NCBI GenBank assembly: GCA_963700145.1
Contig: OY969474.1
Location: 4,960,001 to 5,024,000, forward strand
Direction of reading: 5' to 3'
Length of the DNA stretch: 64,000 nt
Source of the DNA: an uncultured Acidobacteriota bacterium
GTDB taxonomy: Bacteria; Acidobacteriota; Thermoanaerobaculia; Multivoradales; UBA5704
The translations under genes were made by a program, and so were the position numbers. Shown in pieces: positions 1 to 25,350 of this stretch. Every line of letters starts with the position of its first letter. Within the stretch, counting starts at the first letter, position 1. Under the pieces are notes generated by a model. The model searched no databases and had not been told where the DNA came from. It saw nothing but the letters and a program-made list of their open reading frames with translations.

Positions 1-134
1 CCTTCAGCGGAGCGGGCCACGGCGCCGAAGGCCGTCGCCGCCCGGGGCGGGGCGATCAGGTTGGTCATCTGTTCGACGCCGAGCAGGGACATGGCCCACG
101 AGAAGCTCGCCAGGGATTCAGCCAACTCACGCAT
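1..134 (-). CDS. Partial gene running off the window edge; N-terminal SWAMS-domain protein
   Basis: Not in the ORF track. Manual translation from ATG 134 gives MRELAESLASFSWAMSLLGVEQMTNLIAPPRAATAFGAVARSAE, matching the N-termini of 6116-7870 and 10579-10995. GAGGAG lies upstream. Confidence 0.85.
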   Translation of the reverse strand, partial: MRELAESLASFSWAMSLLGVEQMTNLIAPPRAATAFGAVARSAE

Positions 135-150
135 CGACGTCGCTCCTCTG

Positions 151-1377
151 CTAGAACTGTTCCGGAACCTCGGTCTCGAGGGTCTCGACGCCGGGGATGA
201 TGCAGCCCTCCTGATAACAGTCGTGTAAGGAGGCGTCGCTGAACCCCTTGTAGATGAGCTCTTCGAGGTGTGTGGGGTCGAGGTTCAACATGCCCAACGC
301 GCCGCCTCCGAGCTCTTCCCGGGGATGGAAGCGGTGGATGGTCACCGGGCGGTAACTGGTGAGTGACTTCAATCCGCCCAGCGCGAGGACGGCTCCCTTC
401 CCCAGCCGCTCCAGCTCCAGCTCGGGCAGCGCCTCGCCGCGCCGCAGGCGATCGAAGGCCTCGAGCCCGCGGTTGATTCGGCGCGCCCGGTAGATCTCGC
501 GATTGACCAGCGCCGCCCACGCAATGGTCTGCAGGCGATAGGACGTGGCAACCGTGCTGTCCAGGGTGCTGAGCGGGATGGAGGCGACGTCCGGATCGAG
601 GTAGACGACGTAGATAACGTCGGCCTCGTTGAGCGCCGGGCGGAGCGGAGTATTGATCAGGACGCTGCCGTCCACGAAGGGCTCGGCGCCGACGAAGATC
701 GGGGGCAGGACGCCGGGGACGGCGCTCGACGCCTGGATCGCCAGGGGGCCGAGGTTGTCCGACATGTCCCGGTTGCCGAAGCTCCTCACCCGTCCCGTCG
801 TCCAGTTCGTAGCGAAAATCCGCAGCTTTCGCGTCGCTTCGGTGCGGCGAATGTTCGGGAAGTTGATGGTCTGCCGGATCGTCTCGCTCCACGGCGCGGT
901 CGAGACGAAGACCGTGAAGTCGAACAGGTTGGCGACCCTCTCCCTCAGGCCCTCTTGCTCTCCGGTGGCGAGGTAGACCGCTCTCTGGATTCCCTCCCAG
1001 GTGAGATACGCGCTGTCGCGGCCCAGCTCGAGCAGCGGGCGCAGAGGGTTCGGCACGTAGGCCGTGGGATCCAGGAAGAGGCCAGGATCGCCGCGGAAGC
1101 GGTAGATGCCGTTGCGCGCAGGGTCGCCGGCCAGGGTGCCGAGCCACACGCGCTCGAGATTGGCGACCGCCGCCGGGCCGAACTCATCCCATTGCGAGAC
1201 CAGAAAGGCGGCGTTGTAGGAGCCGATCGACGTGCCGAAGAAGTGTCCCGGTTCGATCAGCCCGAGACCCTTGCACTTGCCGCTGAACAGCGCCTTGAGG
1301 ACGCCGACCTCGTAAGCTCCATTGGCGCCCCCGCCGGAGAGAACGATCGCCTGCCGCGGTGCGCTTGGGCCGTTCAC
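151..1377 (-). CDS. Patatin-like phospholipase
   Basis: LSGGGANG Gly-rich loop, GTSIG nucleophile elbow, ASSAVPG and the DGS catalytic Asp motif. Confidence 0.92.
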   Translation of the reverse strand: MNGPSAPRQAIVLSGGGANGAYEVGVLKALFSGKCKGLGLIEPGHFFGTSIGSYNAAFLVSQWDEFGPAAVANLERVWLGTLAGDPARNGIYRFRGDPGLFLDPTAYVPNPLRPLLELGRDSAYLTWEGIQRAVYLATGEQEGLRERVANLFDFTVFVSTAPWSETIRQTINFPNIRRTEATRKLRIFATNWTTGRVRSFGNRDMSDNLGPLAIQASSAVPGVLPPIFVGAEPFVDGSVLINTPLRPALNEADVIYVVYLDPDVASIPLSTLDSTVATSYRLQTIAWAALVNREIYRARRINRGLEAFDRLRRGEALPELELERLGKGAVLALGGLKSLTSYRPVTIHRFHPREELGGGALGMLNLDPTHLEELIYKGFSDASLHDCYQEGCIIPGVETLETEVPEQF

Positions 1378-1435
1378 CTCAACCCCCCGTCACGGCCGGA
1401 GAAGCTTCCATGGACGTGTCTCGTCCTCCTGCAGC

Positions 1436-2323
1436 TCAACGCCGGGGCCGGCTGCCGGTCGGCGCGGTGCCCTTGCCAGGCGCCGGGGCCTTGCCAGGGG
1501 CGGCTGTCTCGCCAGACGTCTGGGAGGCGCCGGCTCCGCCGCCGAAGTATGCTCCCACGCTGTGGACCAGCAGGTAGTCCGCCGATCGATAGTGCGGGTA
1601 CTCCCTAGCGATCCGGCCGATCGCCTCCTGCGCCGTTTTCGATGACTCGACCGCGGCGATGAAGAAGCAGATATAGGTCCGCAGCTCGTCGAAGATCGAG
1701 GTATCGACCGGGAACTCTCCGTGCCCCCCGAAAACGCTCCGGATCGACCGCCCTGTCGGTATCTCTTCGAGGTGACGGAGCCACATGCCGGGCTGCTTCC
1801 CCGTCAGGAACAGGTGGACACGGTTGTAGACCAGGTCGCCGGCGACGAGCGTTCTGGCGCGCGGGATGTAGAAAGCTGTCTGGTGGCTCGCTTCTCCTCC
1901 CGCGTACTGCAGGAGCTGGACCTCCTCCCTGTCGATCCTCAGGCTCGAATCCTGGCAGCTCTCGGGCACGACCAACTCTTCACAGGCCAGCGGTCCATAC
2001 TTTTGCTTCACCAGATCGAGCATGAAAGCGCCCTGCGCCGCGATCGTCGCCGCCACCTCCGGCGCCGCGAGGATCGGGGTGTGCCGAAATTCGTCCCGCA
2101 GGACCTGAAGCCCCCCGAAGTGATCGGGGTGAGGATGGGAGATGTAGATCTGCTTGAGCCGCCAGCCACCCTTCTTGATCAGGGCCGCAAGTTTCTGCGC
2201 CGCCGGCCTTATCACGTGTGCATCGACCAGCATGGCCTCCCGATCGCCCGCGATCAGGACTGCGTTCTCCAGGACGCCCGACTTCCCGTCCAGGTGGTGG
2301 ATCACGTTCAGTGTGAATGGCAT
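1436..2323 (-). CDS. Metallo-beta-lactamase-fold hydrolase
   Basis: SHPHPDH, VAGD and GHG motifs; GGAGG before ATG 2323 (the ORF extends to 2335). Confidence 0.88.
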   Translation of the reverse strand: MPFTLNVIHHLDGKSGVLENAVLIAGDREAMLVDAHVIRPAAQKLAALIKKGGWRLKQIYISHPHPDHFGGLQVLRDEFRHTPILAAPEVAATIAAQGAFMLDLVKQKYGPLACEELVVPESCQDSSLRIDREEVQLLQYAGGEASHQTAFYIPRARTLVAGDLVYNRVHLFLTGKQPGMWLRHLEEIPTGRSIRSVFGGHGEFPVDTSIFDELRTYICFFIAAVESSKTAQEAIGRIAREYPHYRSADYLLVHSVGAYFGGGAGASQTSGETAAPGKAPAPGKGTAPTGSRPRR

Positions 2324-2363
2324 GTCTACCTCCATCCATCGGTTCTGGCTGCAGCGGTCCCCA

Positions 2364-3653
2364 TCACAATCCTCTTCCCGAGAGGACCCAGGCCGGCAGC
2401 TCAGGGCTGAGCCAATCCGGTACCTGCCGCCAGGTCATGAGCGAGCCGGTGATCAGCGTGTAATGTTGCATGAAGTGTTGGACCAGCATGTCTTTTTCTA
2501 GCTGCGCTCTCGAGATGCAGAGATCCTCGGCCGCGCGGCCCCCGGTGAGGGCGTTGACGAGATCGACGTAGCCGAAGAGCGGATCGAAGCCGGGCGCCGC
2601 GCGCGAGGTCTGTTGGAGCAGGGCATAAAAGGGGGCAAACACGCGCGAGGTGAGCCCGAGCGACACAAGGTTGGCGAGCTGAGCGCCCCAGGTGAAAGGA
2701 TCCAGGGGGACGTCGAGGATCTGCTGCGGCCGGTTGATGACGAACGTGAGGCAGACGCGGATCTCGCCACTGTCACGGATCTTGAAATCGATGAGCTGGA
2801 AACCGGGGCCGAAGCGGCCTGGGCCGTAGACGAGCGGGCCGCGGGCCAGGGGGTTGCGGAGCACCGCGTAGCCGAACCCGTACTCCGCGAGCAGCCCCGG
2901 CCCCGGGTCGTCGACGGCGCGGATGAACGGTTTCGCCAGGACGATCGGGGTCTCCTCGCTAAGCGGTATCGTGAGGTACGGCTGCTCACCACCGAACGGC
3001 CGGAAGGTCAAGGTGAAGTCGAAGATGCGGACGCTCGCGACGATCCATTCGTAGATCGGGCCGATCTCGCGCAAGTCCACGATGGCGCCTTGCTGCGCGG
3101 GCGGAAATTTGCCGACGCGCCCCGAGCGGCGCAGCTTGTAGAAGAGCTGCCGGTAGCCGAATCCCTGGCGGGTTTCCTCCGGCCGTGGGCACCAGCTCAG
3201 GCCTGGGATGTGGAGCCCCCGCCCCTCCCGGTTCTCGTCGACGAAGGCCTCCGGGGCGCGGTAGTCGCTGACGCGCATGAAGTAGCGCAGCACGAACGCA
3301 CGGAGCTGGTCGCGATAGACCATGGCCTCTGCCGCCTTCGGGCGGTCGTAGGACAGGTCCTGGAAGCATCCCATGACCGGCAGCTCCCGATCGCCGGGCA
3401 GCGTCGCCACGTCGAAGAAGCCGAAGCTCGTGTCGGCGGGGTTGAAGGTCCGCATGATCTGGAACTTGTCGCTGTATGCCCCGGCGCGGTCGACTGCCTC
3501 CCACCAGTGCTGCAGCGCCACGGCCTCGGCCACGGCCTGCTCGACACCGCCGAGCAGCGCCGAGTCGTCCTCCGTCAGCAGCCCGCCGGGCTGATCGAAT
3601 CCCGACGTCTGGTCGGTGGGAGGACCGATCGAAACCTGAGGCTCGCTCAACAC
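2364..3653 (-). CDS. Hypothetical protein, 429 aa
   Basis: Coding-like aromatic-rich composition, overlaps the upstream gene's stop and shares cluster orientation; no motif recognised. Confidence 0.8.
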   Translation of the reverse strand: MLSEPQVSIGPPTDQTSGFDQPGGLLTEDDSALLGGVEQAVAEAVALQHWWEAVDRAGAYSDKFQIMRTFNPADTSFGFFDVATLPGDRELPVMGCFQDLSYDRPKAAEAMVYRDQLRAFVLRYFMRVSDYRAPEAFVDENREGRGLHIPGLSWCPRPEETRQGFGYRQLFYKLRRSGRVGKFPPAQQGAIVDLREIGPIYEWIVASVRIFDFTLTFRPFGGEQPYLTIPLSEETPIVLAKPFIRAVDDPGPGLLAEYGFGYAVLRNPLARGPLVYGPGRFGPGFQLIDFKIRDSGEIRVCLTFVINRPQQILDVPLDPFTWGAQLANLVSLGLTSRVFAPFYALLQQTSRAAPGFDPLFGYVDLVNALTGGRAAEDLCISRAQLEKDMLVQHFMQHYTLITGSLMTWRQVPDWLSPELPAWVLSGRGL

Positions 3654-6073
3654 CAGGCGCTCGCTAGAGCGTCCCCGAACCGGCCGTCGGGATCGGAGAC
3701 GCGCAACACGTACAGGTTCGAAAGCGTCCGCGGAAAGACGCTGATGGCAGCGTTGAGAGACATCATGCCGACGGCGCCGCTGAACTGGCCGGTGCCCGAA
3801 ATGAAAGGCCCGAAGCCGCCGAAGCGGAACACCGGCATCGGCGCGCCGGGGAGCTGGGCCGGGAAGGCGCGGCCTTCGACGATGTCGGCGGTTAGCGTAC
3901 CGATGGTCCCGCCATGGCCGTCGAAGAACTGGAACACGCCGTTGCGCGTCTGGAAGGGGATGGGCGGTTGCAGCCCCGGCGCGAATGGGTTGAAGAGGAG
4001 CTGGCCGTCGAGCCTGCCGACGAGAGTCCCGACGCTCGTCTTGGCAAGCGGCGCCCGGCGGCCTGTGGCCGCCGAGTCGAGGTGGACCAGACGCAGAAGC
4101 TCGTGTACCGAAGCCCCTTGCATCTGGCCGCCCGGGCCGGAGATCGTGGTAGTGGGCTCATCGTCGTTCTCCTCGCCGAGGAAGGTGAGGAACGTCGTGC
4201 CCGGATCGGGGTCCGGGATCGGCACGAGCGCAGGCAGATCCGAGGTGGTGAGCAGATCGCCCGAGGGGTCGAGGACGCGCAGCATGATGTTGAGAGCGAG
4301 GCCGCTGGGGGGCGTGATGTAGCCGTTGACCACCACCGTCCCCTGGTGGTTCTTGAGCTTGCCATAGCCCTCGAGGATGTCGATGACCGCGCCGATGCGG
4401 AGCTGTGGCTGGCCATTGATGCGCATCGGGAAGGTGCGACCGGTCCCGAAGCCGTGAAAACCGCTGTGGCTGGCGTCGTCGAACCTGAACTCGCCGTCGA
4501 GAAAGGTGAAGCGCTGCGAGCGGGTCGGATCGAGGGGTGTCGGCGGCGGATCGCCGTTCGGATTCGCCACGTAGTCGTCGGGGATGGGTCGCCAGATGAT
4601 GTGTACCTTGGCCGCCGGCAGCCCGACGACATTCGCGGCCCGCAGCCCGCGCTCGGCGGTCGGCCGGGCCATCCGCACGTCGAAGCGGTGCAGGTTCTCG
4701 TGGACGTGGACCCCGATCATCTGGCCGTTGGCGATGATCGGCACGTTCGGCTCGGCGCTGTTGGGCATGGAGAAGAACGAGAAGTACGCGGCCCGCCGGA
4801 GCAGGTGCTGCACCACCTGCAGCTTGTAGCTCTCGGGATTGACCCCCGGCGGGAACGTAGGTGGCAGAGGCGGCATTCCGGGCGGCGGGCCCGGCGGCAT
4901 CCCGGCCGCTGCCGCCGCCGCGGGCGGGCCGGCGGGCGCACTGGCGACGGTCGGCGGAGAAGGAGCGCCGCCCGGGCTGCTCGGGCCGCCGGCGGCCGCC
5001 GCAGGGGGACCCTGGGGGATCGGCGCCTGGTTCTGCTTGCGGACGACCCGGAAGACGTCGAAGGTCTTGGCCGGGAACACGGTGTTCGGACCGAAGGGCG
5101 CGCCCGGGGCGAGCTGACCGGAACCGACGGCGCTCTTGACTCCGGAGGCTCCTTCGTACCTGCCCGTGCCGCCGGTGATGATCCCCATGGCGGTGGTCAT
5201 GAAGATCATCGAGCCGTCCGCGAGCGGCGCCAGGAACGCCTGGCTGGCACCGATGGCTGTGATCGAGTCCTCGTCGTTGAACTTCCACGTGGACTTGTAG
5301 TAGCCGCCGATTGGCAGCTGGGGGATCCCTCCGGGCTGGTCGATGGGCATCGACGGCATCGGGGGCTTCGTCATTAGCTGCTGCGGCGTCGCTGCGCCGA
5401 CCGCTGCCTGGATGCCCTCGTAGGAGCCTCCCGGCTGGCCGTCGGGTGTGAAGGTATCGATGCGCAGGATGATGTAGCGGGGATCCTCCAGGATGTAGCC
5501 GTTGCCGGCGCCGTAGCGGATGAGCACCTCTTCGCCCTGGACCCCGGGGTCGGTGACCGCCGGCGAGACCACCCGTCCGCCACCGGTCCGTGGCGACCGC
5601 CCGAAGGTCTCCGGTAGGACGCCGAGCTGCTGCAGCACGTACGCCCGGTCCCAGCCGATCCACGACTCCGCGCGCTTGCCGTTCTCCAGGAACCGGTTGA
5701 AGGCGAGCCCGTGGTACACGAAGGGCAAGTCCGTCGGCGGCAGGCCCATGAATCCGTTGGTCCGCGTGCCCTGGCTGGTGAAGCGCACCACGGTGAAGTT
5801 GTCCTTGGCGATCGCTTGGTCCACCGTGAAGCGGATGTCGGAAAAAGCCTTGAAGAACCCCTCCAGCGCCGCCTGGGCGTTCTCGGCGCCTTCGATTTTG
5901 CCGCCGGGCAAGGTATCGGTGAACCACTGGTAGTCGGGGGTCACCCCGGCGACGAAACCGCTGGCGTCGTGAGCGTTGAAGTTGACCCACCCCTTCAGCG
6001 TCGCCTGCAGATTGCGCTCTTCTGCCTCCTGCCGCCGCTGTTCGCTCGTCATGATCGCCTGTTCGCTCGTCAT
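3647..6073 (-). CDS. SnoaL/ester-cyclase domain + AOC/dirigent-like barrel + Pro/Ala linker + two further barrel-like repeats
   Basis: N-terminal AFSDIRFTVD...VVRFTSQGT...FMGLPPT (SnoaL-like); barrel signatures ITGGTGRYEGASG, ILEGYGKLKNHQG and FISGTGQFSGAVG. Confidence 0.75.
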   Translation of the reverse strand: MTSEQAIMTSEQRRQEAEERNLQATLKGWVNFNAHDASGFVAGVTPDYQWFTDTLPGGKIEGAENAQAALEGFFKAFSDIRFTVDQAIAKDNFTVVRFTSQGTRTNGFMGLPPTDLPFVYHGLAFNRFLENGKRAESWIGWDRAYVLQQLGVLPETFGRSPRTGGGRVVSPAVTDPGVQGEEVLIRYGAGNGYILEDPRYIILRIDTFTPDGQPGGSYEGIQAAVGAATPQQLMTKPPMPSMPIDQPGGIPQLPIGGYYKSTWKFNDEDSITAIGASQAFLAPLADGSMIFMTTAMGIITGGTGRYEGASGVKSAVGSGQLAPGAPFGPNTVFPAKTFDVFRVVRKQNQAPIPQGPPAAAAGGPSSPGGAPSPPTVASAPAGPPAAAAAAGMPPGPPPGMPPLPPTFPPGVNPESYKLQVVQHLLRRAAYFSFFSMPNSAEPNVPIIANGQMIGVHVHENLHRFDVRMARPTAERGLRAANVVGLPAAKVHIIWRPIPDDYVANPNGDPPPTPLDPTRSQRFTFLDGEFRFDDASHSGFHGFGTGRTFPMRINGQPQLRIGAVIDILEGYGKLKNHQGTVVVNGYITPPSGLALNIMLRVLDPSGDLLTTSDLPALVPIPDPDPGTTFLTFLGEENDDEPTTTISGPGGQMQGASVHELLRLVHLDSAATGRRAPLAKTSVGTLVGRLDGQLLFNPFAPGLQPPIPFQTRNGVFQFFDGHGGTIGTLTADIVEGRAFPAQLPGAPMPVFRFGGFGPFISGTGQFSGAVGMMSLNAAISVFPRTLSNLYVLRVSDPDGRFGDALASAWC

Positions 6074-8023: not shown

Positions 8024-8656
8024 TTAGGTCGCCGCTGCGCCGGCCTCGCCACCGCCGCGCCGGCCTCGTCCTCCTCCACCGGTCGTCTCGGCGCTCTCGC
8101 CGCCTTCGCGCCCCTTCTCCAAGCAGACGCAGTCCGCGATCCGCTCGAGGGCCGCGAGCTGCCGCGACTCGAAATGCAGGTCCTGCTTGGCCCAACGGTC
8201 CAGGACGTTGTAGTAGACCCGGATGTACATGGCGTCACCAAGCGGGACGGCGTCGCAGCCGTACTTGCGCACGATCCAAGCGGTGAATCCATCCGGCGTG
8301 AGATTGTCCGTGACGAGGTCTTCGCCCTGCGTGAAAACCTGCTCGCCGTCGCGCTTGACGCTGACGAGGCTCCACTGGACGAGCTTCACCATGTCGTCGC
8401 TCAGGTTCCTGTCTCCCATCTTCCTTTCCTCCTTGCGTGTAGAAAGACTGCTCGGTTCCAACCGACGGTTTCCTTCTGCTTCGACAAAGCCTTCACCCGG
8501 CGTCGTGCCGGGATAAGGATCGATCGAGTTCCGCATCCCGCTCATGGTCAGCTCGGCCTGCCGCTCCATGTTCTGCACCGCCCGTGCGATCGCCTCGAGT
8601 CCGTTGGCGAACATCATGAACGGCATCAGCAACAGACGACCGAAGAGCTCCAGCAT
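8024..8656 (-). CDS. Hypothetical protein with a probable internal in-frame second start at 8419
   Basis: Coding-like ORF with GGGGAG upstream; AAGGAGG lies 8 nt before the internal ATG (MGDRNLSDDMVKLV). Confidence 0.8.
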   Translation of the reverse strand: MLELFGRLLLMPFMMFANGLEAIARAVQNMERQAELTMSGMRNSIDPYPGTTPGEGFVEAEGNRRLEPSSLSTRKEERKMGDRNLSDDMVKLVQWSLVSVKRDGEQVFTQGEDLVTDNLTPDGFTAWIVRKYGCDAVPLGDAMYIRVYYNVLDRWAKQDLHFESRQLAALERIADCVCLEKGREGGESAETTGGGGRGRRGGGEAGAAAT

Positions 8657-8657: not shown

Positions 8658-8723
8658 TCAACCGCTCCCCAGGCGTCTGCCCGCCCAAGGAGCCTTCGTC
8701 ACCTGCCGGAAGAGCTCGAACAT
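8658..8723 (-). CDS. Putative 21-aa micro-ORF MFELFRQVTKAPWAGRRLGSG
   Basis: ATG overlaps the upstream stop (TGATG); its stop is 1 nt before the next ATG; resembles that gene's N-terminus MLELFGRLLLMPF. Confidence 0.4.
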   Translation of the reverse strand: MFELFRQVTKAPWAGRRLGSG

Positions 8724-17221: not shown

Positions 17222-17266
17222 TCAGACCTCCGCCCCGTCCCCCGCGAGGGCCACGCGCCCTTTCAT
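17222..17266 (-). pseudogene. 14-codon relic of a ketosynthase N-terminus
   Basis: MKGRVALAGDGAEV compared with KS MKRRIVVTGLGAVT; same ATGA overlap with an ACP stop. Confidence 0.5.
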
Positions 17267-17541
17267 CCCTCCACCGCCTGGGCCTTCCGCGCCAGCTCGC
17301 CCAGCCGCCCCTGGACGAGGGCGACCATCGCCGGCAGGTTGTCGATCTCCTTGTAGCGGTCGTCCGCCAGCCCGAGCTGGAAGTTGTAATCGACGTCGAC
17401 GCCGATCTCGAGCAGCGACAGGGAGTCGAGGTTGAGATCGTCGCGGAGCGTCGCCTCGTCGGGGATGCGCGCCGGGTCGAGGCCGGCGACGTGGGCGATG
17501 ATCTCCTTCAGGCGGGTGCGGATCGCGTCGGTGTCGTTCAT
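17263..17541 (-). CDS. Acyl carrier protein, copy 2
   Basis: DLNLDSLSLLEI phosphopantetheine Ser motif; paralog of 24981-25268. Confidence 0.93.
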   Translation of the reverse strand: MNDTDAIRTRLKEIIAHVAGLDPARIPDEATLRDDLNLDSLSLLEIGVDVDYNFQLGLADDRYKEIDNLPAMVALVQGRLGELARKAQAVEG

Positions 17542-17838: not shown

Positions 17839-19296
17839 CTATGGATGCGGCGCGAACACGGCATGGAAGCCGGGGGTGATCGGGGCGGCCAGCGGCAGGA
17901 CGGCGCGCGGTCCGGCGGCGAGGTCGAAGGCGTCGAAGACCAGCCAGGAGCTGGCGCGGCGCTCGGCATCGAAGAGGTGGCAGACGGCAACGCCGCGCAG
18001 CGAGCCGTCGTGCTCGGTTTCCGGTGCGAGTACCACGACCGGCTCGCTCGCCAGGTACCGTCCCGGCGGCGGCTGCCAGACGTCCTGGGTCTCCGGGTCC
18101 GCCCACGAGAGGCGCACGAGCTGGTCGAAGAACTTGCGCCCCGGCCGGCCGGTGGCGGCGATGCCGAGGAGCCAGAGGTCGTCGCACGGTCGCTCCGCCA
18201 GGCGGAGGTCGATCGACGGGAAGTCCGGCGCGTTGCCGTAGGGCAGCTCGCGCCGCTCGACGAGGGCGCCGGCCTCCAGGTCCACCACCAGCCGCACCGG
18301 CCACCCCTCCGCCACGTCGCGGAAGAGCTCGGGGACCGGCGCGTACTGGTCGTAGACCGGCCGCTCCAGCTCGAGCAGGTCGACGACCAGCCGCCCGCGC
18401 GCGTCCTCGAAGGCGTTTGCCGTGTGCAGGCAGTAGCGGCCGCCGAGCGGCAGCTCGGCCACCGCCTCCAGCGTGTCGCGCGCCACGACGAGCAGCCGGC
18501 TGCCGAGCTCCGGCCGCCAGTCGAGCGCCTCCAGCAGCGGCGCGCCGCCGGCGAGGGCGGCCATGTCGAGCAGGTAGGGCGAGAGGTAGAAGACGGCGTA
18601 TCGCGGCGCCAGGGCGAAGTCGTGGAGCGAGCACGGGTACGGCAGCGGCAGCCGCTTGCGCGCCGCCAGCTTGCCGCCGGCGGTGCAGCGGTAGACGTTG
18701 AGCGCCGGCTCGGCGCCGGCGAAGGAGACGCCGAAGTTCCACAGCTCGCCGGTCGCCGGGTCGAGCTTGGGGTGCGCCGAGAAGGGAGCGATCGGGCCGA
18801 GGCCACCGCCGAAGGTGTAGGGGCCGCGGGTCGCCAGCGTCTCCGGGTCGATCTCCCAGGGTAGCCCCTGCTCGCCGCAGGCGAGGAGCGTGCCGGCGTA
18901 GGGCAGCACGCTGACGTTGACCGGCGACTCCAGGGCGATGCCGCGCAGCAGCCGGTCGCCGGGGAAGGCGGTACCGAAGGCGCGAAAGAGCGCCCGCCCC
19001 GCCTCCTCCTCTGCCGTCCACTTGACGCTGCGCACGAAGCGGCAGGTGAAGCGGACGCCGTCCTCTCCGAAGCGTAGGGCCTCGACCAGCCCGTCGCCGT
19101 CGAGCCAGTGGCGGTAGCGCAGGCCGCCGCGCTCGAACCGCCCGGGGCCGTTGACGTAGAGCGTGCCGCGCAGCCAGTCGGGCAGCTCGCCGGCGACCGC
19201 GACCGCCTCGCTCCGCTCCTCGGGCAGGAAGTCGAAGGCGCGCTCGAGGTGGGGCGCGTAGTCCGCGTCCCCGGGCGCCCGCGCCGGCTCGCTCAT
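17839..19296 (-). CDS. Carotenoid oxygenase (RPE65/CCD/LSD family)
   Basis: GTLYVNGPG, HWLDGDG, four iron-ligand His (SAHPK, LHDF, LHTAN, GFHA), DFP and SEP. Confidence 0.93.
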   Translation of the reverse strand: MSEPARAPGDADYAPHLERAFDFLPEERSEAVAVAGELPDWLRGTLYVNGPGRFERGGLRYRHWLDGDGLVEALRFGEDGVRFTCRFVRSVKWTAEEEAGRALFRAFGTAFPGDRLLRGIALESPVNVSVLPYAGTLLACGEQGLPWEIDPETLATRGPYTFGGGLGPIAPFSAHPKLDPATGELWNFGVSFAGAEPALNVYRCTAGGKLAARKRLPLPYPCSLHDFALAPRYAVFYLSPYLLDMAALAGGAPLLEALDWRPELGSRLLVVARDTLEAVAELPLGGRYCLHTANAFEDARGRLVVDLLELERPVYDQYAPVPELFRDVAEGWPVRLVVDLEAGALVERRELPYGNAPDFPSIDLRLAERPCDDLWLLGIAATGRPGRKFFDQLVRLSWADPETQDVWQPPPGRYLASEPVVVLAPETEHDGSLRGVAVCHLFDAERRASSWLVFDAFDLAAGPRAVLPLAAPITPGFHAVFAPHP

Positions 19297-21101
19297 CGCG
19301 CCGCCGCCGCGGCCTCCATCGTCTCCTCCGGCTCGACCTCCACGTCCTCGCCGGCGGGCCGCCGGAAGCGCGCCATGCAAGCGGGCTCGATCTGCCAGGG
19401 GGAATCGCCCGCCGGCAGGTCCTTGCAGGCCTGCCAGCGCGCTGCCATCGCCTCCGGGTCGAAGACCAGGTTCGCGACGTCGATGCCGCGCACGTACTCG
19501 GCGTGGTGGACCAGCCGCGGCTCGTCCAGCACGACGGCGGCGACGTGCGCGGCGACGAAGCGCGCCAGCTCCTCCAGGTTGCCGGTCTGCTCGTCGAGCA
19601 CGCGGAACGCTTCGTTGAAGTCGGCGCCCTGCCGGTAGAAGCAGTCGGCCGCGGCGCGGAGCTGCCAGGCCTCGGTGAACTCGAAGTAGACGGGCCCTTG
19701 CGGCGGCAGCATCCGCCGCTCCTTCTTCCAGTTGTAGAAGCCGACCAGCAGCGTGAGGACCCCGAGGTTGAGCGGCCCGAGGTGGCCGAAGCGCCGCAGG
19801 AAGCCGGGGAGGAACCGCTTGTCGGTGAAGAGGTCGTTGATGAAGGGGAAGACGAAGAAGGCGAAGTAGATCGTCAGCTCCCAGACGTAGCGCAGGGTGT
19901 AGCACTCCTGGTCCCCGAGCAGGTCCTGCGACACCGCGAAGCTCGGCACGTAGGCCTGGTAGACCGCGCGCGCCAGCCCCTCGTAGAGCGGGACCTTCTC
20001 CTCCAGCTCCTTGCGGTCCGCGGTCAGGATGGCGTCCGAGACGATCGTGTTGTAGATCGAGATCAGGTCGCCGCCGGGGCTGTAGAGGGGGTCGGTGAAG
20101 CGGCAGGCCTCGCCGGTCATCGACCAGCCGGCCGCCGAGAGCGTCTCCGCGCAGTCGTGGGCGAAGTCGGCGAAGCCCGAGTGGTAGATGACCTTCCGCT
20201 GTGGCAGGTCGCGGGCGAACATCGGGATGTTGCGGCACACCCAGTCGATCAGCTTGTCGGCGGTGTTGACCTCTTTCCACGGCACGCGCTCGGTGTCGAA
20301 GACCAGCCCCAGGCTGGTCTTGCCGTGCAGCGGGATCTCCCAGAACCAGTAGCCCTCGCCGCAGAAGTGGTTGGTGGCGAGGAACGTCGGGACGTGCCCC
20401 AGATTGTGGCGGTCCTTGCGCTTGCGGATGCCGGCCGCGTCGAGGTCGGTCAGCTTCTCGGGGTCGAGCAGCCCCTCCACCCAGAGGAACGAAGAGCCGT
20501 GGCGGATCGGGCTCTTGCGCATCAGCCCCCTGCGCTTGGCGAGCAGGCGGCCGCGGCCGCTGTTGTCGGCCACCCAGCGCGCGCGGCCGGCGATCGGGCC
20601 GTCGGGGGTCTGGACGCGGAAGGGGTGCGGGCCCTGCTCCTCCTGCAGCTCCAGCTCGATGTTCGTCGCCTCGGTCACCAGCCGGAAGCTCGGGTGCTCC
20701 TGGTTGACGCGCAGCACCTCGGCCTCGAAGGCGTTGCGGTCGAGCTGGTAGGTGACGATGTTCGACAGGTGCCGGATGTAGGACTGGCTCTGCTCCTCCC
20801 AGCGCGTGGCGCCGCCCGGCGGCTGCCAGTAGAAGCGCAGGTTGTACTTCATGTAGTGGTGGCGGAGGAGGTGCTCCTCGAGCTCCAGCACGCGCGCGTA
20901 GTAGTAGCCGGAGACCTGCACCGTGGCCTCCCCCACCTTCTGCTCCAGCGGCGGCACGACCGCCCGCCGGTCGAGCATCAGGATGCGCATCTCGGGGCGC
21001 TTCAAGAGGAGCTGGCGCGCCAGCGTCAGGCCGGCCAGGCCGGCGCCGATCACCAGCACGTCGTAGTCCTCGACCCGGGTTTGCTGCCGCGTCTCATCCA
21101 T
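19293..21101 (-). CDS. Flavin-dependent halogenase-like enzyme
   Basis: GAGLAG, KVGEAT, HYMKYNLRF (candidate catalytic Lys), WFWEIP (WxWxIP) and FTDPLYSPG. Confidence 0.82.
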   Translation of the reverse strand: MDETRQQTRVEDYDVLVIGAGLAGLTLARQLLLKRPEMRILMLDRRAVVPPLEQKVGEATVQVSGYYYARVLELEEHLLRHHYMKYNLRFYWQPPGGATRWEEQSQSYIRHLSNIVTYQLDRNAFEAEVLRVNQEHPSFRLVTEATNIELELQEEQGPHPFRVQTPDGPIAGRARWVADNSGRGRLLAKRRGLMRKSPIRHGSSFLWVEGLLDPEKLTDLDAAGIRKRKDRHNLGHVPTFLATNHFCGEGYWFWEIPLHGKTSLGLVFDTERVPWKEVNTADKLIDWVCRNIPMFARDLPQRKVIYHSGFADFAHDCAETLSAAGWSMTGEACRFTDPLYSPGGDLISIYNTIVSDAILTADRKELEEKVPLYEGLARAVYQAYVPSFAVSQDLLGDQECYTLRYVWELTIYFAFFVFPFINDLFTDKRFLPGFLRRFGHLGPLNLGVLTLLVGFYNWKKERRMLPPQGPVYFEFTEAWQLRAAADCFYRQGADFNEAFRVLDEQTGNLEELARFVAAHVAAVVLDEPRLVHHAEYVRGIDVANLVFDPEAMAARWQACKDLPAGDSPWQIEPACMARFRRPAGEDVEVEPEETMEAAAAAR

Positions 21102-22332
21102 CGCTGCCTCCCTCCGGCCGGTTGCGGCCGTACTCCTCGTGCGCGCCCACGAACTCCCCGGAGGCGAGCGCCGCGGCGAGCGACAGCTCGCCGGCCAGCA
21201 GGGTCGCGGCGACGATCTCGGCCAGCTTGCACGCGCCACCGGCACCGGCGCAGCCCAGCAGCTCCAGGCACTCGCGGGCCGTGCCCTCGCCGGTGCCGCC
21301 GCCGACGGTGCCGACGGTGAGCGCCGGCAGCACCACGCTGGCGTAGAGGTCTCCGGCCTCCGTCAGCTCGAGCTGGGTCGTGCCGACCGCGGCGTTGGCG
21401 AGGTTCGCCACGTCCTGGCCGCAGGCGATGAAGATCGCGGCCAGACCGTTGGCGAAGTGACCGTTGTAGCCGACCACGCCCGCCTGCAGGTTGCCGACCA
21501 GCGTCGTGCGCCAGAGCTGCACCAGCCGCCGCGGCTCGCTGTTGAGGTAGGCGCGCACCAGCCGGCCCGGCAGGTGCGCCCCCGCCATCACCGTCTTCCC
21601 CTTGCCGCCGGCGAGGAGCGAGGCGCCGGCGTGCTTCTCCGACTCCATGCCGCTGAACAGCAGGTAGTCGCGCGCCAGCCCCTTGGCGACGATCCAGCGG
21701 CAGGCGCGGTCGGCGGCCTTCGCGATCATGTTCATGCCGTGCGCGTCGCCGGTCGAGAAGCAGAAGTGCACCATCACCTCGCGCCCCACGGCCCGCGGCT
21801 CGAGGCGCAGCAGGCGGCCGTGGCGGGTCGTCGCCTCGGCCTCGGCGCGGATCTCGGGCAGCAGCTCCTGGAGCCGGAGGCAGAGGTCGGCGGCCTGCCC
21901 GACGTCGTCGAGGAAGAAGACGGGCGAGATGCGGTTCTCGTCGCGGGTGACGCGGGCGGCGACGCCGCCGGCGCGGCTGAGCAGCACCATGCCGCGCTCG
22001 TAGGAGCGGACCAGCGCGCCTTCGGTCGTGGCGAAGGGGACGTAGAAGACGCCGCGGGCGTGGTCGCCGTTGACCAGCAACGGCCCGGCCAGGCCGAGCG
22101 GCACCTGCGCGGCGCCGATCGGGTTCTCGACGTTGCCGCGCATCGCGCGGCCGTCGATCGAGTGCGCGCCGACGTGCGCCAGGGGGACGCCGCACCGCTC
22201 CTCGATCCAGCGGCGGCGCGCGGCGATCTGCTCCGGCTCGTACCCCTGCTCCGCGAAGCGCGGCACCAGGTCGGCGCGAGCGGCGTCCGGCTCCAGCGGA
22301 ACGGCGTGCGGGCGCGGCGACGGCGGCGCCAT
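21094..22332 (-). CDS. HMG-CoA reductase-like (class I) protein, copy 1
   Basis: GNVENPIG, TTEGALV, DAHGMNM, GQD, GTVGGGT, GELS and AHEEYGR. Confidence 0.9.
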   Translation of the reverse strand: MAPPSPRPHAVPLEPDAARADLVPRFAEQGYEPEQIAARRRWIEERCGVPLAHVGAHSIDGRAMRGNVENPIGAAQVPLGLAGPLLVNGDHARGVFYVPFATTEGALVRSYERGMVLLSRAGGVAARVTRDENRISPVFFLDDVGQAADLCLRLQELLPEIRAEAEATTRHGRLLRLEPRAVGREVMVHFCFSTGDAHGMNMIAKAADRACRWIVAKGLARDYLLFSGMESEKHAGASLLAGGKGKTVMAGAHLPGRLVRAYLNSEPRRLVQLWRTTLVGNLQAGVVGYNGHFANGLAAIFIACGQDVANLANAAVGTTQLELTEAGDLYASVVLPALTVGTVGGGTGEGTARECLELLGCAGAGGACKLAEIVAATLLAGELSLAAALASGEFVGAHEEYGRNRPEGGSDG

Positions 22333-23552
22333 CAGGCCGGCCCCGCGAAGACGACGGCGCAGCAGTGGCCGTCCCAGCCGACACCGCTGGCGAGCGCGCG
22401 GCGGGCCGCGACCGGGCGGGCGGCGGCGGCGAGGCCGCCGAGCGCGCAGCCGTCCTCGGTCGCTTCGAGCCCGGCGACGCCGGGCAGCTCACCGGTGCGG
22501 AAGGTCTCGAGCAGCGCCACCGCCTGGAAGCCGCCCGAGGCGCCGAGCGCCTCGCCGAGCGCGCCCTTGACCGCGGTCACCGGCACCGCCGCGGCCGCGC
22601 GGCCGAGCGCCGCCGCCAGCCCCGCCGCCTCGGCGCGGTCGCCCTCCGGGCTGCCGTTGGCCGCCGCGGAGACGCAGTCGATCTCCTCCGCCGCGAGGCC
22701 GGCCTGCCCGAGCGCCAGGCCGACGGCGCGCGCCACCGCGCCGGCGCGGGCGGCGGGAGAGGGGGCGAAGGCCTGGCCGTGCGCCACCACCTCGGCCAGC
22801 ACGGTCGCGCCGCGCGCCGCCGCCGACTCGGCGTCCTCCAGCATCAGCAGGGCCGCGCCCTCGGAGAGGGCGAAGCCGTTGCGCCGCCGGTCGAAGGGGA
22901 CCGGCCGCTCGGCGCCGTCGGGCCGCGGTCCGCAGAGGCGCCCGGCGCGGAAGCAGCCGAGGAACGACTCGAAGCACAGCTCCTCGGCGCCGCCGGCCAG
23001 CAGCGCGTCGGCGCGGCCGCCGGCGATCAGGTCGGCGGCGTGGGCGATCGCCATGAGCCCCGAGGCCTCGCCGCCGGAGAGCGTCGAGTTGACGCCGCGC
23101 AAGCGGTGCCAGATCGCGGCCTGCCCGGCGGCGGCGTTGATGACGCTGTTGGCGAAGTCCATCGGGCTGGCGTACCCCGGCCCCAGCTGCTGCCCGCGCC
23201 GGTCGAACTCCGCGATCGTCCGCACACTGCAGAAGGTGGTGCCCAGGACCAGCCCCACCTCGCGCTCGTCCAGCCGCTCGGGCGTCCAGCCGGCCGACGC
23301 CAGCGCCTGCCCGGCCGCCACGAGCAGCAGCCGCGAGGTGCGGTCGACGGGCCGCAGGTTCCGGTCGCCGAGGTAGGCGCGGGCGTCGAACGGGCGGATC
23401 TCCCCGGCCCGCACGGCCCCCAGGCCGTTGGTCGGAAAGAGCTCCACCGGCTTGAGCGCGCTCTCCCCGGCGCACAGCGCCGCGTGCAGGGCGGAAGGAG
23501 AATCGCCGAGTGGGGAAATAACCCCGGCGCCCGTGACCACGACCCTCCTCAC
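22332..23552 (-). CDS. Non-catalytic ketosynthase homolog (chain-length-factor-like)
   Basis: KS fold (VVVTGAG, PFDRRRNGFALSEGA) with GGEASG at the Cys position, SAAANGS for AHGTGT and LGEALG for LGH. Confidence 0.85.
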   Translation of the reverse strand: MRRVVVTGAGVISPLGDSPSALHAALCAGESALKPVELFPTNGLGAVRAGEIRPFDARAYLGDRNLRPVDRTSRLLLVAAGQALASAGWTPERLDEREVGLVLGTTFCSVRTIAEFDRRGQQLGPGYASPMDFANSVINAAAGQAAIWHRLRGVNSTLSGGEASGLMAIAHAADLIAGGRADALLAGGAEELCFESFLGCFRAGRLCGPRPDGAERPVPFDRRRNGFALSEGAALLMLEDAESAAARGATVLAEVVAHGQAFAPSPAARAGAVARAVGLALGQAGLAAEEIDCVSAAANGSPEGDRAEAAGLAAALGRAAAAVPVTAVKGALGEALGASGGFQAVALLETFRTGELPGVAGLEATEDGCALGGLAAAARPVAARRALASGVGWDGHCCAVVFAGPA

Positions 23553-23569
23553 AGGTCAACCCCCTGCAT

Positions 23570-23747: not shown

Positions 23748-23766
23748 GGCAGTCGCGTATCGCCGT

Positions 23767-24984
23767 TCACAGCTCGCAGCTCCGGAAGATCACCGACGCA
23801 TTATTCCCCCCGAAGGCGTAGGCGTTGTTCATCGTCACCCGCACGTCCAGCTTTCGCGCCGCGTTCGGCACCACGTCCAGATCGCACTCCGGGTCCGGCT
23901 CCTCGTAGTTCATCGTCGGCGGCACCCGGCCCGTCGCGATCGCCAACGCGCACACTACCGACTCGATCGCCGACGCCGCCCCCATCGTGTGGCCCAGCAT
24001 CGACTTCACCGAGCTCATCGGCGGCACCCCACCCTCACCAAACACCCGCTGCACCGCGATCGTCTCCAACCGATCGTTCGTCGGCGTCCCCGTGCCGTGC
24101 GCGCTGATGTAGCTCACCTCGTCCGGCGCCACCCCCGCGTCCGCCAGCGCCCGCTCCATCGCCCGCGCCGCTCCGTCACCCTCCGGGTGCGCCGCCGTCA
24201 TGTGGTGCGCGTCGCACGACAGGCCATACCCCGCCACCTCGGCGTAGATCCGCGCTCCCCGCCCGACCGCCCGCTCCAAGGGCTCCAGCACCAGGACCGC
24301 CGCTCCTTCCCCAGGGATCATCCCCTTCCGGTTCTTGTCGAACGGCCGGCAGAGGTCCGGGGCGATCGCCCCGAGACGGAAAAAGCCCGTGTAGGTGATC
24401 CGCGAGAAGGCGTCCGCGCCGCCGGCCAGCATCAGGTCCGCGCGCCCGGCCCGCAGCACGTCCAAGGCGTGCGCCACCGCGTAGTTGCCCGCCGCGCAGG
24501 CCGCCGGGATCATCGTGTTGACCCCGCCGAACCCCAGCTCCTGGCCGACGTGCGCCGCGATCATGTGGCAGGGGTAGAGGCCCATGAACTCCGGACCCAC
24601 TTGGTCCAGCTCGCCGGCGAGATAGCGGTCGTCGAAGCGCTCGACCTCCACCGGCTCGCCCGAGGTCGTCCCCATCGAGACCCCGGCGCGCTCGGGCTCC
24701 ACCGCCTCGGCCTCCAGACCGGCGTCGGCCAGCGCCATTCGCGCCGCCGCCACCGCGAATTGCGAGGCCCGTCCCAGCGCCGCGGGGTCGAGCGTGCGCA
24801 CCCACGCCGCCGGCTCGAAGCCGCGCACCTCGGCGCCGAGGTGGACGTTGAACCGCCCGGTGTCGAAGGACTCGACCGGCGTGAAGCCGCTGCGCCCCGC
24901 CAGCAGCCCCGACCACAGCTCGTCCGCCCCCGTGCCGACCGGCGTCACCGCCCCGAGGCCGGTGACGACGATCCGCCGCTTCAT
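23767..24984 (-). CDS. Beta-ketoacyl-ACP synthase (FabF/type II KS-like)
   Basis: AACAAG, AHGTGT and KSMLGH triad; AFGGNN; ATGA overlap with the ACP gene. Confidence 0.95.
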   Translation of the reverse strand: MKRRIVVTGLGAVTPVGTGADELWSGLLAGRSGFTPVESFDTGRFNVHLGAEVRGFEPAAWVRTLDPAALGRASQFAVAAARMALADAGLEAEAVEPERAGVSMGTTSGEPVEVERFDDRYLAGELDQVGPEFMGLYPCHMIAAHVGQELGFGGVNTMIPAACAAGNYAVAHALDVLRAGRADLMLAGGADAFSRITYTGFFRLGAIAPDLCRPFDKNRKGMIPGEGAAVLVLEPLERAVGRGARIYAEVAGYGLSCDAHHMTAAHPEGDGAARAMERALADAGVAPDEVSYISAHGTGTPTNDRLETIAVQRVFGEGGVPPMSSVKSMLGHTMGAASAIESVVCALAIATGRVPPTMNYEEPDPECDLDVVPNAARKLDVRVTMNNAYAFGGNNASVIFRSCEL

Positions 24985-25268
24985 GCCGAGGCCGCCTGCG
25001 CTCCCACGGCCAGCTCCTCGAGGCGCTCGCTGACGAGGGCGACCATGTCGGGGATGCTGCGGACCTCCTTGAAGCGCTCGTCGGGGAGACCGAGCTGGAA
25101 GGCGTAGTCGACGTCGACCCCGATCTCGAGCAGCGACAGCGAGTCGAGGTGCAGGTCCTCCCGCAGGGACGCCTCGTCGCCGATCCGTTCGACGTCGAGC
25201 CCGGCCACGTGTGCGATGACGTCCTTGATGCGGTCCCGGATGGCCGCTTCGTCCGTGCGATGGTCCAT
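24981..25268 (-). CDS. Acyl carrier protein, copy 1
   Basis: DLHLDSLSLLEI; AGGAGG RBS before ATG 25268. Confidence 0.93.
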   Translation of the reverse strand: MDHRTDEAAIRDRIKDVIAHVAGLDVERIGDEASLREDLHLDSLSLLEIGVDVDYAFQLGLPDERFKEVRSIPDMVALVSERLEELAVGAQAASA

Positions 25269-25321
25269 GCCCGTCCTCCTGGGATGTGTGAGCCGCGCTC
25301 TCGAAATCAAAAGAGGCGGCG

Positions 25322-25350
25322 ATGTTAACCCGGCCCGTCGCGGGCCTCAA
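25322..25350 (-). promoter_or_regulatory. Sigma70-like promoter candidate for the ACP-KS operon
   Basis: TTGAGG-N17-TAACAT, about 54 nt upstream of the ACP1 ATG. Confidence 0.45.

Follow-up and report, generated by a model that had tools for sequence, protein, structure and literature searches.

The closest described systems each share components with the locus presented here. FcrA is a fatty acyl-CoA reductase derived from class I hydroxymethylglutaryl-CoA (HMG-CoA) reductase; in the part of its description consulted here (Grossi et al. 2025, ISME J, PMC11948995) it reduces fatty acyl-CoA to alcohol, does not reduce HMG-CoA, and has a signature with Glu at position 684, Trp at position 862 and a small residue in place of the HMG-binding Lys. 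Cluster I of anammox bacteria, as given in the consulted parts of two sources, comprises amxACP, amxFabZ, the ketosynthase (KS) pair amxFabF2/amxFabFmut, a phytoene-dehydrogenase homolog and a B12-radical-SAM enzyme (bioRxiv 10.64898/2026.05.19.726425; PMC2649909), and in amxFabFmut the Cys of the KS triad is replaced by Val and its second His by Glu (bioRxiv 10.64898/2026.05.19.726425, which in that part prints no PDB code). Myxococcus MXAN_1675 is described as a fusion of FAR-like and GNPAT-like parts and ElbD as a multidomain protein (PMC9131029, in part). Further comparisons are offered by the ishigamide proteins Iga11/Iga12 and other highly reducing type II polyketide synthases (PKS), by the carrier-dependent flavin halogenases CndH, PltA and Bmp2, and by the oxygenases ACO and NOV/LSD. 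Here we analyse a stretch of 64,000 nucleotides (the window; contig OY969474.1, positions 4,960,001 to 5,024,000, assembly GCA_963700145.1) from an uncultured acidobacterium. To judge from its predicted proteins, the window most likely contains the greater part of a conserved specialised-lipid pathway of Acidobacteria. The conserved system consists of an acyl carrier protein (ACP), a KS and its chain-length-factor-like (CLF) partner, an HMG-CoA-reductase-like (HMGR-like) reductase, a CrtI-like flavoenzyme, a PlsC-type acyltransferase fused to a domain like the short-chain dehydrogenases/reductases (SDR-like), a halogenase and an RPE65-family oxygenase.

A search with HMGR1, one of two HMGR-like proteins of the window, returned 76 loci, nearly all in metagenome-assembled genomes of Acidobacteriota from several classes, and the closest public loci belonged to the acidobacterial class Thermoanaerobaculia. 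Genes were counted by tblastn with all cluster proteins on the 40 loci with full 10-kb flanks. The CrtI-like gene adjoined the HMGR-like gene in 35 of the 40, and KS, CLF and ACP were present in 34 each; the acyltransferase was found in 24, RPE65 in 17, the halogenase and the ABC1-family kinase ABC1a in 15 each, ABC1b in 12, and the genes here named unk138, unk210 and unk429 in 10, 5 and 2, respectively, while patatin and SnoaL808 were each found once. This arrangement is far beyond chance, and ABC1 kinases often accompany the conserved system. Wide flanks were compared in seven relatives. One genome of the same family carries a compact eight-gene version, ACP-KS-CLF-HMGR-CrtI-AT-halogenase-oxygenase (AT, acyltransferase; the G365 type), another genome the order ACP-KS-CLF-HMGR-halogenase-oxygenase, and a genome of a third family HMGR-(FabG-like SDR)-CrtI-TetR-AT-ABC1...halogenase, with no adjacent KS/CLF. 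In the variant locus without KS/CLF (L094:8596-10475, genome G353), ABC1 and halogenase are separated by two genes for ArsA/Get3-like ATPases and an unassigned 474-aa gene; further insertions are the FabG-like SDR and the TetR regulator. The leftmost genes of the window, from the alpha/beta hydrolase to patatin (151-7870), had been counted into the system by an initial annotation of this DNA; they were not conserved with it in any of the seven wide-flank relatives. Patatin and the metallo-beta-lactamase-fold protein had no match in these relatives, and weak unk429-like matches (24-25% identity) lay upstream of the HMGR-like gene in two of the seven.

Co-occurrence was also followed at the genome level in an even set of 401 Acidobacteriota genomes, which includes related genomes and is therefore not a set of independent cases. 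Cluster-type HMGR was present in 13 of the 401 genomes, the window's own included, the halogenase in 13 at E<=1e-160 (plus one match of 32% identity) and the oxygenase in 14. All three were found together in the same 12 genomes, in several cases spread over more than one contig or separated by hundreds of kilobases. Three genomes deviated, one (75% complete) with HMGR only, one with halogenase and oxygenase, and one with oxygenase only. A CLF-like gene (at least 38% identity, 391 genomes searched) accompanied HMGR in 12 of the 13 positive genomes, the boundary with FabF matches at 30-37% being soft. Synteny and genome counts together bear out the multi-gene system proposed initially: this is a real gene system common to a small, scattered set of Acidobacteria. 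Its patchy spread (about 3% of the sample) is in keeping with a specialised and not a core metabolism.

Genes were called by codon usage in the window, which has about 72% G+C, and were assigned to families with Pfam and NCBIfam. The call gave 19 consecutive minus-strand genes from 151 to 25268, or 21 if the co-oriented run is counted up to 28372, in agreement with the run of about 19 genes with overlapping stop and start codons described initially. By the gene-call coordinates, overlaps occur at seven junctions: ACP1/KS (4 nt), CLF/HMGR1 (1 nt), HMGR1/halogenase (8 nt), halogenase/RPE65 (4 nt), acyltransferase/ABC1a (4 nt), SnoaL808/unk429 (7 nt) and EamA-GSDH/unk237 (4 nt). As had also been noted, the run crosses the left window edge, where a small gene with an N-terminal tag begins near 134 and leaves the window; beyond it come, in order, a 411-aa gene, a single divergent gene for a CN-hydrolase and a module of five genes encoding exported FG-GAP/ASPIC and TPR proteins. 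Every family named at the outset was recovered: two ACPs, a KS and a KS-like partner, two HMG-CoA_red proteins, an FAD enzyme, RPE65, a CrtI-like amine oxidase, an LPLAT/DAGAT acyltransferase, two ABC1 kinases, an alpha/beta hydrolase, a SnoaL fusion, a metallo-beta-lactamase-fold protein (MBL) and patatin. The reported absence of ketoreductase (KR), dehydratase (DH), crtB and mevalonate genes from the window likewise held at the Pfam level, with four small open reading frames (ORFs; 32173-34110) outside the scan. A terminator-like hairpin lies 3' of the RPE65 stop codon (17832-17815). Because a promoter and terminator scan found 3 sites against 4.0 expected from shuffles, i.e. no excess, operon boundaries are unproven. 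The features of the run, in the direction of transcription, are as follows.

25488..28372, minus strand: 237-aa membrane protein (HExxH read by eye) and EamA transporter fused to a GSDH-like propeller (Pfam)
24981..25268, minus strand: ACP1, dedicated acyl carrier protein (PF00550, E=6.7e-10)
23767..24984, minus strand: KS, predicted active ketosynthase, FabF/amxFabF2-like (PF00109/PF02801)
22332..23552, minus strand: CLF-like, predicted inactive KS partner (PF00109/PF02801)
21094..22332, minus strand: HMGR1, predicted HMGR-derived thioester reductase of the FcrA-like radiation, paired with halogenase and oxygenase (PF00368, E=1.4e-103)
19293..21101, minus strand: predicted flavin-dependent halogenase, 602 aa (PDB halogenase matches, motifs)
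17839..19296, minus strand: RPE65/carotenoid-cleavage-oxygenase family enzyme (PF03055, E=1.6e-94, 318 bits)
17263..17541, minus strand: ACP2, second carrier protein, of the duplicate unit (PF00550, E=2e-07)
15996..17219, minus strand: HMGR2, second predicted HMGR-derived reductase (PF00368, E=2.1e-100)
14375..15958, minus strand: CrtI-like FAD oxidoreductase, phytoene-dehydrogenase homolog (PF01593)
12696..14357, minus strand: degenerate extended-SDR/epimerase-fold domain (about residues 1-270) fused to a PlsC/DAGAT-type acyltransferase (PF01553, PF03982)
11032..12699, minus strand: ABC1/UbiB-family atypical kinase a, ABC1a (PF03109, E=3.7e-53)
10579..10995, minus strand: unk138, 138 aa, N-terminal tag (no Pfam or NCBIfam match)
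8723..10372, minus strand: ABC1-family kinase b, ABC1b (PF03109, E=1.3e-22)
8024..8656, minus strand: unk210, 210 aa, loosely tag-like N-terminus (no family match)
6116..7870, minus strand: tagged fusion with a predicted C-terminal haloalkane dehalogenase domain, lineage-specific (NF002938)
3647..6073, minus strand: SnoaL808, 808 aa, N-terminal SnoaL domain (PF07366, E=1.3e-17)
151..3653, minus strand: unk429, metallo-beta-lactamase-fold protein and patatin-like lipase (Pfam; neighbours not conserved with the system)
1..134, minus strand: third tag-bearing small gene, 5' part, leaving the left edge (tag match E=8.9e-6, 50% identity)

The gene identities, catalytic motifs, synteny and genome-level co-occurrence suggest a specialised-lipid pathway with a carrier-bound chain, alcohol release, desaturation, acyl transfer, halogenation and C=C cleavage, a reading to which we give slightly better than an even chance and in which all chemistry, step order and product are inferred. 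In this scheme the dedicated ACP and the KS paired with a catalytically dead CLF would build or extend an acyl chain, with ketoreduction and dehydration borrowed from housekeeping fatty-acid synthesis. The FcrA-like enzyme would then release it by four-electron thioester reduction as a primary alcohol, the CrtI-like flavoenzyme may desaturate or oxidise the chain, and the SDR-like::PlsC-type acyltransferase would esterify it. The halogenase would act on an activated position and the RPE65-family oxygenase would cleave a C=C bond of the same chain, and the ABC1 kinases, small tagged proteins and exported module may act with the product in the membrane or envelope. The initial annotation had a chain built on ACP, halogenated, reductively released, cleaved or cyclised and esterified; the reductive release is supported by the reductase sequences, while the data show neither a cyclisation nor in which order the steps occur. 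Its statement that no characterised cluster has this combination stands, in that literature searches of main texts found none; supplements, including those of PMC11948995, which may list the clade, lay outside these searches. Neither of the outcomes named initially as refuting the system was thus seen, since co-occurrence is conserved and no full-length match to a characterised cluster emerged.

Four PF00368 genes are present in the genome. HMGR1 and HMGR2 share 71% identity with one another, 42-43% with HMGR3 and 38-40% with HMGR4, and HMGR2 is the copy best matched by most orthologs elsewhere. Both window copies keep the catalytic Glu559, Lys691, Asp767 and His866, and among 80 extracted ortholog sequences no substitution of these residues was seen, one row being gapped at His866. 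We take the HMG-binding residues to be Ser684, Lys692, Lys735 and Leu862, in a human numbering that follows the FcrA paper and was in part transferred by motif position. The window copies have Thr/His at Lys735, His/Gln at Lys692 and Phe at Leu862 (Lys735->Thr, Lys692->His and Leu862->Phe in HMGR1), a cis-loop one residue shorter, and Ser or Phe at 684 depending on the placement of a one-residue gap. The residue printed as 'Lys795' in the part of PMC11948995 consulted was read as Lys735. On TIGR00533 both copies score 310-325 bits, below the cutoff of 441.8. HMGR4, on the other hand, keeps the canonical HMG-binding motifs and is encoded in an operon (G000:C1:1614001-1634000, L096) with the order polyprenyl synthase - FMN_dh (type-2 IDI-like) - HMGR - GHMP kinase - MVD - SQS/PSY; no match to the HMG-CoA synthase N-domain was found in the genome.

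A FastTree phylogeny was built from 155 sequences (representatives, the four paralogs and syntenic orthologs), with rows of fewer than 330 aligned residues dropped, and was midpoint-rooted. Among the rows listed, the syntenic acidobacterial HMGR-like proteins grouped in a single clade that fell outside the canonical one and had as its sister a large group of proteins bearing N-terminal extensions. In loci L042, L044, L045 and L054 a close HMGR-like paralog (62-64% identity) stands with no cluster gene within 10 kb, and these paralogs are sister to the window copies in the tree. Since the HMG-binding residues are changed, the scores fall below the cutoff, the copies lie outside the canonical clade and a canonical HMGR4 is found in a mevalonate operon elsewhere, the cluster genes are predicted not to be mevalonate enzymes, and their earlier reading as thioester reductases is strengthened by the substitutions, the tree and the HMGR4 operon.

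By sequence the cluster copies are tentatively assigned to the FcrA-like (fatty-acyl reductase) radiation. They share with FcrA the HMGR fold with its catalytic Glu/Lys/Asp/His, the loss of the HMG-binding Lys in both window copies, a bulky aromatic residue in place of Leu862, a position beside acyltransferase genes and outside mevalonate operons, and, by analogy, an expected four-electron reduction of thioester to alcohol. They differ from it in having no N-terminal Lad domain, Ser or Phe and not Glu at 684, Phe and not Trp at 862, the shorter cis-loop, basic residues at 692/735 in most orthologs and a clade of their own. They are also encoded directly after ACP-KS-CLF, and this gene order suggests an ACP-bound substrate. 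HMGR3 (512 aa, about 110 residues of N-terminal extension, Glu at 684 and Trp at 862) lies at G000:C1:5428001-5442000 (L097), a few genes away from an ABC1 kinase and a PlsC-type acyltransferase, and the triad of reductase, ABC1 and PlsC acyltransferase thus occurs twice in the genome.

The PlsC/DAGAT-type domain of the acyltransferase has an FPEG motif and an unusual H-x6-D motif; among its orthologs PF01553 and PF03982 were found in 17 of 17 and PF01370 in 5 of 17. The N-terminal domain resembled epimerase families in Atlas features (0.94-0.96), and an AF2 model (pLDDT 75.6) gave Foldseek epimerase matches at E about 1e-11. Read by eye, this domain has neither the Gly-rich motif nor YxxxK, and it looks non-catalytic. 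The CrtI-like protein scored 145.9 bits on TIGR02734 (cutoff 238.1), and its PDB matches, the CrtD-like 4rep (84 bits) and CrtI 4dgk (76 bits), mark it as a distant relative. ABC1a scored 228 bits on TIGR01982, below the cutoff of 487.55.

These enzymes would also suit a bulk ether-lipid or wax-ester pathway, in which the HMGR-like enzyme gives a saturated fatty alcohol, the acyltransferase builds alkyl- or acyl-glycerolipids or wax esters, and the halogenase and oxygenase act elsewhere. FcrA supplies alcohols for wax esters and has been proposed to do so for ether lipids (PMC11948995, in the part consulted), and in this genome the FcrA-type paralog HMGR3 also stands near an ABC1 kinase and a PlsC acyltransferase. 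The Myxococcus ether-lipid genes offer a likeness as well, namely a reductase function that accompanies an acyltransferase of PlsC type, and a fusion of SDR-type domain and acyltransferase that recalls the FAR-like and GNPAT-like fusion (PMC9131029, in the part consulted). Here, however, the reductase is HMGR-derived and a separate protein, the SDR-like domain lacks the two motifs named above, and neither an AGPS gene (searched at the locus) nor a WS/DGAT gene nor an ElbD-type multidomain protein is present at the locus. With 13 carriers among 401 sampled genomes, the system is too unevenly spread to make a core membrane lipid, and halogenase and oxygenase co-occur, usually as neighbours, in 12 of those 13. 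We therefore regard a bulk-lipid role as improbable. The myxobacterial elb ether-lipid cluster itself was rejected as a counterpart, its architecture, with the multidomain ElbD, being different.

Alignment of the carrier and condensing proteins supported the KS/CLF/ACP set proposed initially. The DSL serine motif of ACP1 was present in every listed variant of its 21 orthologs, and the Cys-His-His motifs of the KS were kept in 57 of 57 orthologs, the alignment leaving out one wrong-frame ORF row (L012). In the CLF the triad is replaced (Cys->Glu, His->Ala, His->Glu), and in its orthologs Glu mostly takes the place of the Cys and also replaces the second His. An active KS would thus be encoded beside a homolog lacking the triad, the arrangement of a KS/CLF heterodimer. 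The best PDB match of the KS was 9s5h_B (490.7 bits), followed by the ishigamide KS 6kxd (383 bits), which was also the top Foldseek match at 47% identity; that of the CLF was 9s5h_C (241 bits). Chain C of 9s5h carries Val in place of the Cys and Glu in place of the second His, and chains B and C of 9s5h/9s5i are very probably the anammox amxFabF heterodimer, to judge from these residues; no relevant paper citing the two codes was found in the literature.

The likeness to anammox Cluster I accordingly covers a dedicated ACP, an active KS with a triad-less partner that both match chains B and C of 9s5h/9s5i best, and a phytoene-dehydrogenase homolog. Cluster I differs in having FabZ and a B12-radical-SAM enzyme, neither of which was among the scanned window genes, while the HMGR-like reductase, acyltransferase, halogenase, oxygenase and ABC1 kinases are features of the present locus. 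Since the host is an acidobacterium and not an anammox bacterium, ladderanes are not expected. With ishigamide Iga11/Iga12 and other highly reducing type II PKS the locus shares the KS/CLF heterodimer architecture; it differs in having no cluster-encoded KR/DH, Glu at the CLF Cys position and other downstream chemistry. An aromatic type II PKS is not supported, the CLF having Glu and not Gln at the Cys position and the sole SnoaL domain belonging to the non-conserved 808-aa protein.

A KS/CLF with ACP, an LPLAT-type acyltransferase and a halogenase is the gene mix of aryl-polyene, flexirubin and xanthomonadin clusters. The product could on this ground be a pigment of that kind, a phenol-capped polyene with a halogenated ring, attached to lipid and cleaved by a lignostilbene-dioxygenase-like oxygenase; the second-best KS relative is the polyene-forming ishigamide KS, and the window oxygenase scores equally on lignostilbene dioxygenase models (161.7 bits) and on apocarotenoid oxygenase. 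Aryl-polyene pathways, however, keep the carboxyl group and are not known to use an alcohol-forming reductase. The window has no KR, DH, thioesterase or LolA/MMPL export genes and no aryl-starter genes (ammonia lyase, chorismate-derived or CoA ligase), and the closest KS/CLF is very probably a fatty-acid-type anammox pair. Such a pigment has a slim chance, and the polyene chain assumed in the initial annotation is not shown by these genes.

The halogenase matched CndH (E=8e-8), PltA, Bmp2 and CtcP best in the PDB. GxGxxG was kept in all 21 orthologs but one gapped row, and WxWxIP (as WFWEIP) and the Lys aligned to a CndH Lys (counted as residue 76) were found in 21 of 21; the CndH residue is presumably the catalytic Lys. 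With all three motifs tested present, the 602-aa FAD protein is predicted to be a flavin-dependent halogenase, in line with the halogenase of the initial annotation. The oxygenase, encoded by the only RPE65 gene in the genome, was placed in its family as expected by PF03055 and four iron-ligand His residues kept in 24 of 24 orthologs. Its best PDB match was Synechocystis ACO (162 bits); it is about as near to the lignostilbene dioxygenase models and falls far below any equivalog cutoff. The window enzymes thus share motifs with CndH, PltA and Bmp2 and the four-His iron site with ACO and NOV/LSD, from which they are nevertheless distant (E about 1e-7 and about 160 bits, respectively). Halogenase and oxygenase are a conserved pair with overlapping genes, and no comparable pair was found in literature searches.

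An opposite direction of flow was also considered, in which the oxygenase cuts a carotenoid or another existing conjugated lipid to an aldehyde, the HMGR-like enzyme oxidises this onto ACP or CoA, KS/CLF extends it and the acyltransferase installs it in lipid. HMGR chemistry is reversible in some bacteria, the mevalonate operon with SQS/PSY and a second SQS/PSY gene in the genome make an isoprenoid polyene possible, the nearest solved oxygenase is an apocarotenoid oxygenase, and a CrtI-like enzyme is present. However, both the oxygenase and the CrtI-like protein are only remotely related to carotenoid enzymes, no carotenoid gene is present in the cluster, and the order ACP-KS-CLF-HMGR fits building followed by release; we consider this flow quite unlikely. 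That the HMGR-like genes are true HMG-CoA reductases in an isoprenoid or carotenoid cluster, as the strong PF00368 match, the name hydroxymethylglutaryl-CoA reductase given to all these homologs by public sources and the adjacent CrtI-like and RPE65-family genes might suggest, is largely refuted and barely credible given their low NCBIfam scores, changed HMG-binding residues and position outside the canonical clade, the canonical HMGR in the mevalonate operon and the lack of any HMGS, kinase, decarboxylase or crtB gene in the window.

The front end of the system is duplicated in this genome: unit A is ACP1-KS-CLF-HMGR1-halogenase-oxygenase and unit B is ACP2-HMGR2-CrtI-acyltransferase-ABC1. 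The closest relative, L005 (about 94% DNA identity), has ACP2-KS2-CLF2-HMGR2, and in relative L006 the order is ACP2-KS2-HMGR2, with CLF2 alone lost. Compared with L005:15176-17732, the window shows a clean KS2-CLF2 deletion at 17237-17263, with about 13 bp between ACP2 and HMGR2 where L005 has 2.5 kb. As KS2-CLF2 is present there in L005, unit B is a duplicate minus its KS/CLF, and the window genome, L006 and L005 look like decay stages of a duplicated module.

The alpha/beta hydrolase at 6116-7870 is, from its sequence, identified as a haloalkane dehalogenase: its domain scores 294.6 bits on NF002938 (cutoff 241) and matches AncHLD5 (285 bits) and DhaA (about 250 bits) in the PDB, and alignment to AncHLD5 revealed the motifs HGNP, HDWGS, FMEA and GLH. 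These we take to be the HLD-II pentad (Asp nucleophile, His, Glu, halide-binding Asn and Trp). The domain is fused to an N-terminal region of about 280 residues. Because this genome has added a tagged dehalogenase, the halogen may be removed again. The tag corresponds to the first approximately 45 residues of the fusion; it recurs on unk138 and on the small left-edge gene, and at E<1e-5 the 5.46-Mb genome yielded these three occurrences and no others. The N-terminus of unk210 is loosely similar to the tag region (17% identity). A search for longer tag-bearing proteins gave the window's own protein and two weak matches, and in the Atlas both the tag and unk138 matched hypothetical acidobacterial clusters only; the tag thus fell into no known family. 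The C-terminal half of SnoaL808 is 43% identical by blastp to the 411-aa gene left of the window (G000:C1:4958499-4959734), and between its residues 261-348 and residues 179-266 of the dehalogenase fusion there is 33% identity. NCBIfam gave no match for the FG-GAP/ASPIC proteins, unk411, unk138 or unk210.

The module left of the window consists of five minus-strand genes encoding FG-GAP/ASPIC proteins of 819, 596 and 590 aa (the last FG590), a TPR protein of 238 aa placed after the second of these, and a TPR+FG-GAP/ASPIC protein of 1114 aa; by eye, all five have signal-peptide- or anchor-like N-termini. At a second locus of G353 the five families lie in the same order and at similar sizes between oxygenase and ACP-KS-CLF, and in many loci module orthologs (50-70% identity) stand directly upstream of ACP-KS-CLF-HMGR or between CrtI and acyltransferase. 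At least one module gene was present in 26 of the 76 loci and in 17 of the 40 with full flanks, three or more in 10 of the 40. FG590 orthologs (at least 55% identity) were found in 15 of 391 genomes, all 12 triple-positive genomes among them; the other three carriers were the genome with halogenase and oxygenase, the oxygenase-only genome and one more. The exported FG-GAP/ASPIC-TPR module is taken to belong to the system. As CRTAC1-like/TPR sets are common elsewhere, this link rests on orthology and co-occurrence and not on family membership.

Several observations weigh against the specialised-lipid pathway as drawn. The system is known here from genes alone, the cluster encodes no KR, DH or enoyl reductase (ER), and chain type and length are not fixed by the genes. 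The likeness of the halogenase to solved halogenases is weak, although its motifs are present. The Ser684->Glu signature of FcrA is absent from the cluster copies, and most single-copy orthologs have Arg at 692 and His/Arg at 735; because basic residues are kept there, a substrate with an acidic or polar group is possible. The midpoint-rooted tree contains no experimentally characterised FcrA, and the placement is read from the rows listed. In some genomes HMGR-CrtI-AT-ABC1 occurs with no adjacent KS/CLF, and in three genomes an FG590 ortholog occurs without the full triad of HMGR, halogenase and oxygenase, the module being linked by co-occurrence only. A dehalogenase ortholog was absent from five other positive genomes, which gave partial matches of 31-37% only.

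Upstream of ACP1, the pair at 25488..28372 is a possible exporter whose membership in the system is uncertain. The EamA-GSDH fusion (724 aa, 26198-28372, with a GSDH/DUF7133-like propeller) lies upstream of the cluster in 6 of the 40 related loci, and the 237-aa membrane protein was also found in 6 of the 40. The rest of the window contains unrelated genes, namely a type II secretion/type IV pilus (T2SS/T4P) ATPase, TyrRS, Ku/LigD, an L,D-transpeptidase, a glycan-type set of methyltransferases and glycosyltransferases, riboflavin genes and a multicopper oxidase. At 41476-45183 Ku stands beside a three-domain LigD (phosphoesterase, ligase, primase-polymerase), a complete bacterial non-homologous end-joining pair. 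A 660-aa GFO/IDH/MocA oxidoreductase fused to an NAD-dependent epimerase/dehydratase (47992-49974) stands among methyltransferase, glycosyltransferase and DUF6625 genes in what is probably a glycan-modification locus, and the 859-aa multicopper oxidase at 58795-61374 carries an MVL mannan-binding lectin domain.

In soil, Acidobacteria rank with the most abundant bacteria, yet very few of their metabolites or lipids have been tied to genes. As predicted from its genes, the system described here unites three kinds of enzymology that have been recognised only lately, namely reductases of HMGR origin that form alcohols, KS/CLF heterodimers of the fatty-acid type and a possibly cryptic halogenation, and adds to them a C=C-cleaving oxygenase and an exported protein module. 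A more specific and rather doubtful idea is that the product is an unsaturated fatty-alcohol lipid, transiently or permanently halogenated, from which the oxygenase cuts an aldehyde or alcohol fragment; this fragment would work beyond the cytoplasm together with the co-inherited exported CRTAC1-like proteins. If true, the product would be a bacterial halolipid, or an envelope factor derived from lipid, of a new class, and the system would offer a first functional handle on bacterial CRTAC1-like propellers, and the N-terminal tag would recruit tailoring enzymes to a lipid site organised by ABC1 kinases. Given such close co-occurrence and a version compacted to eight genes, the product question is directly testable by heterologous expression, and the identity of the product would give functions to several large mis-annotated families, including thousands of proteins labelled "HMG-CoA reductase".

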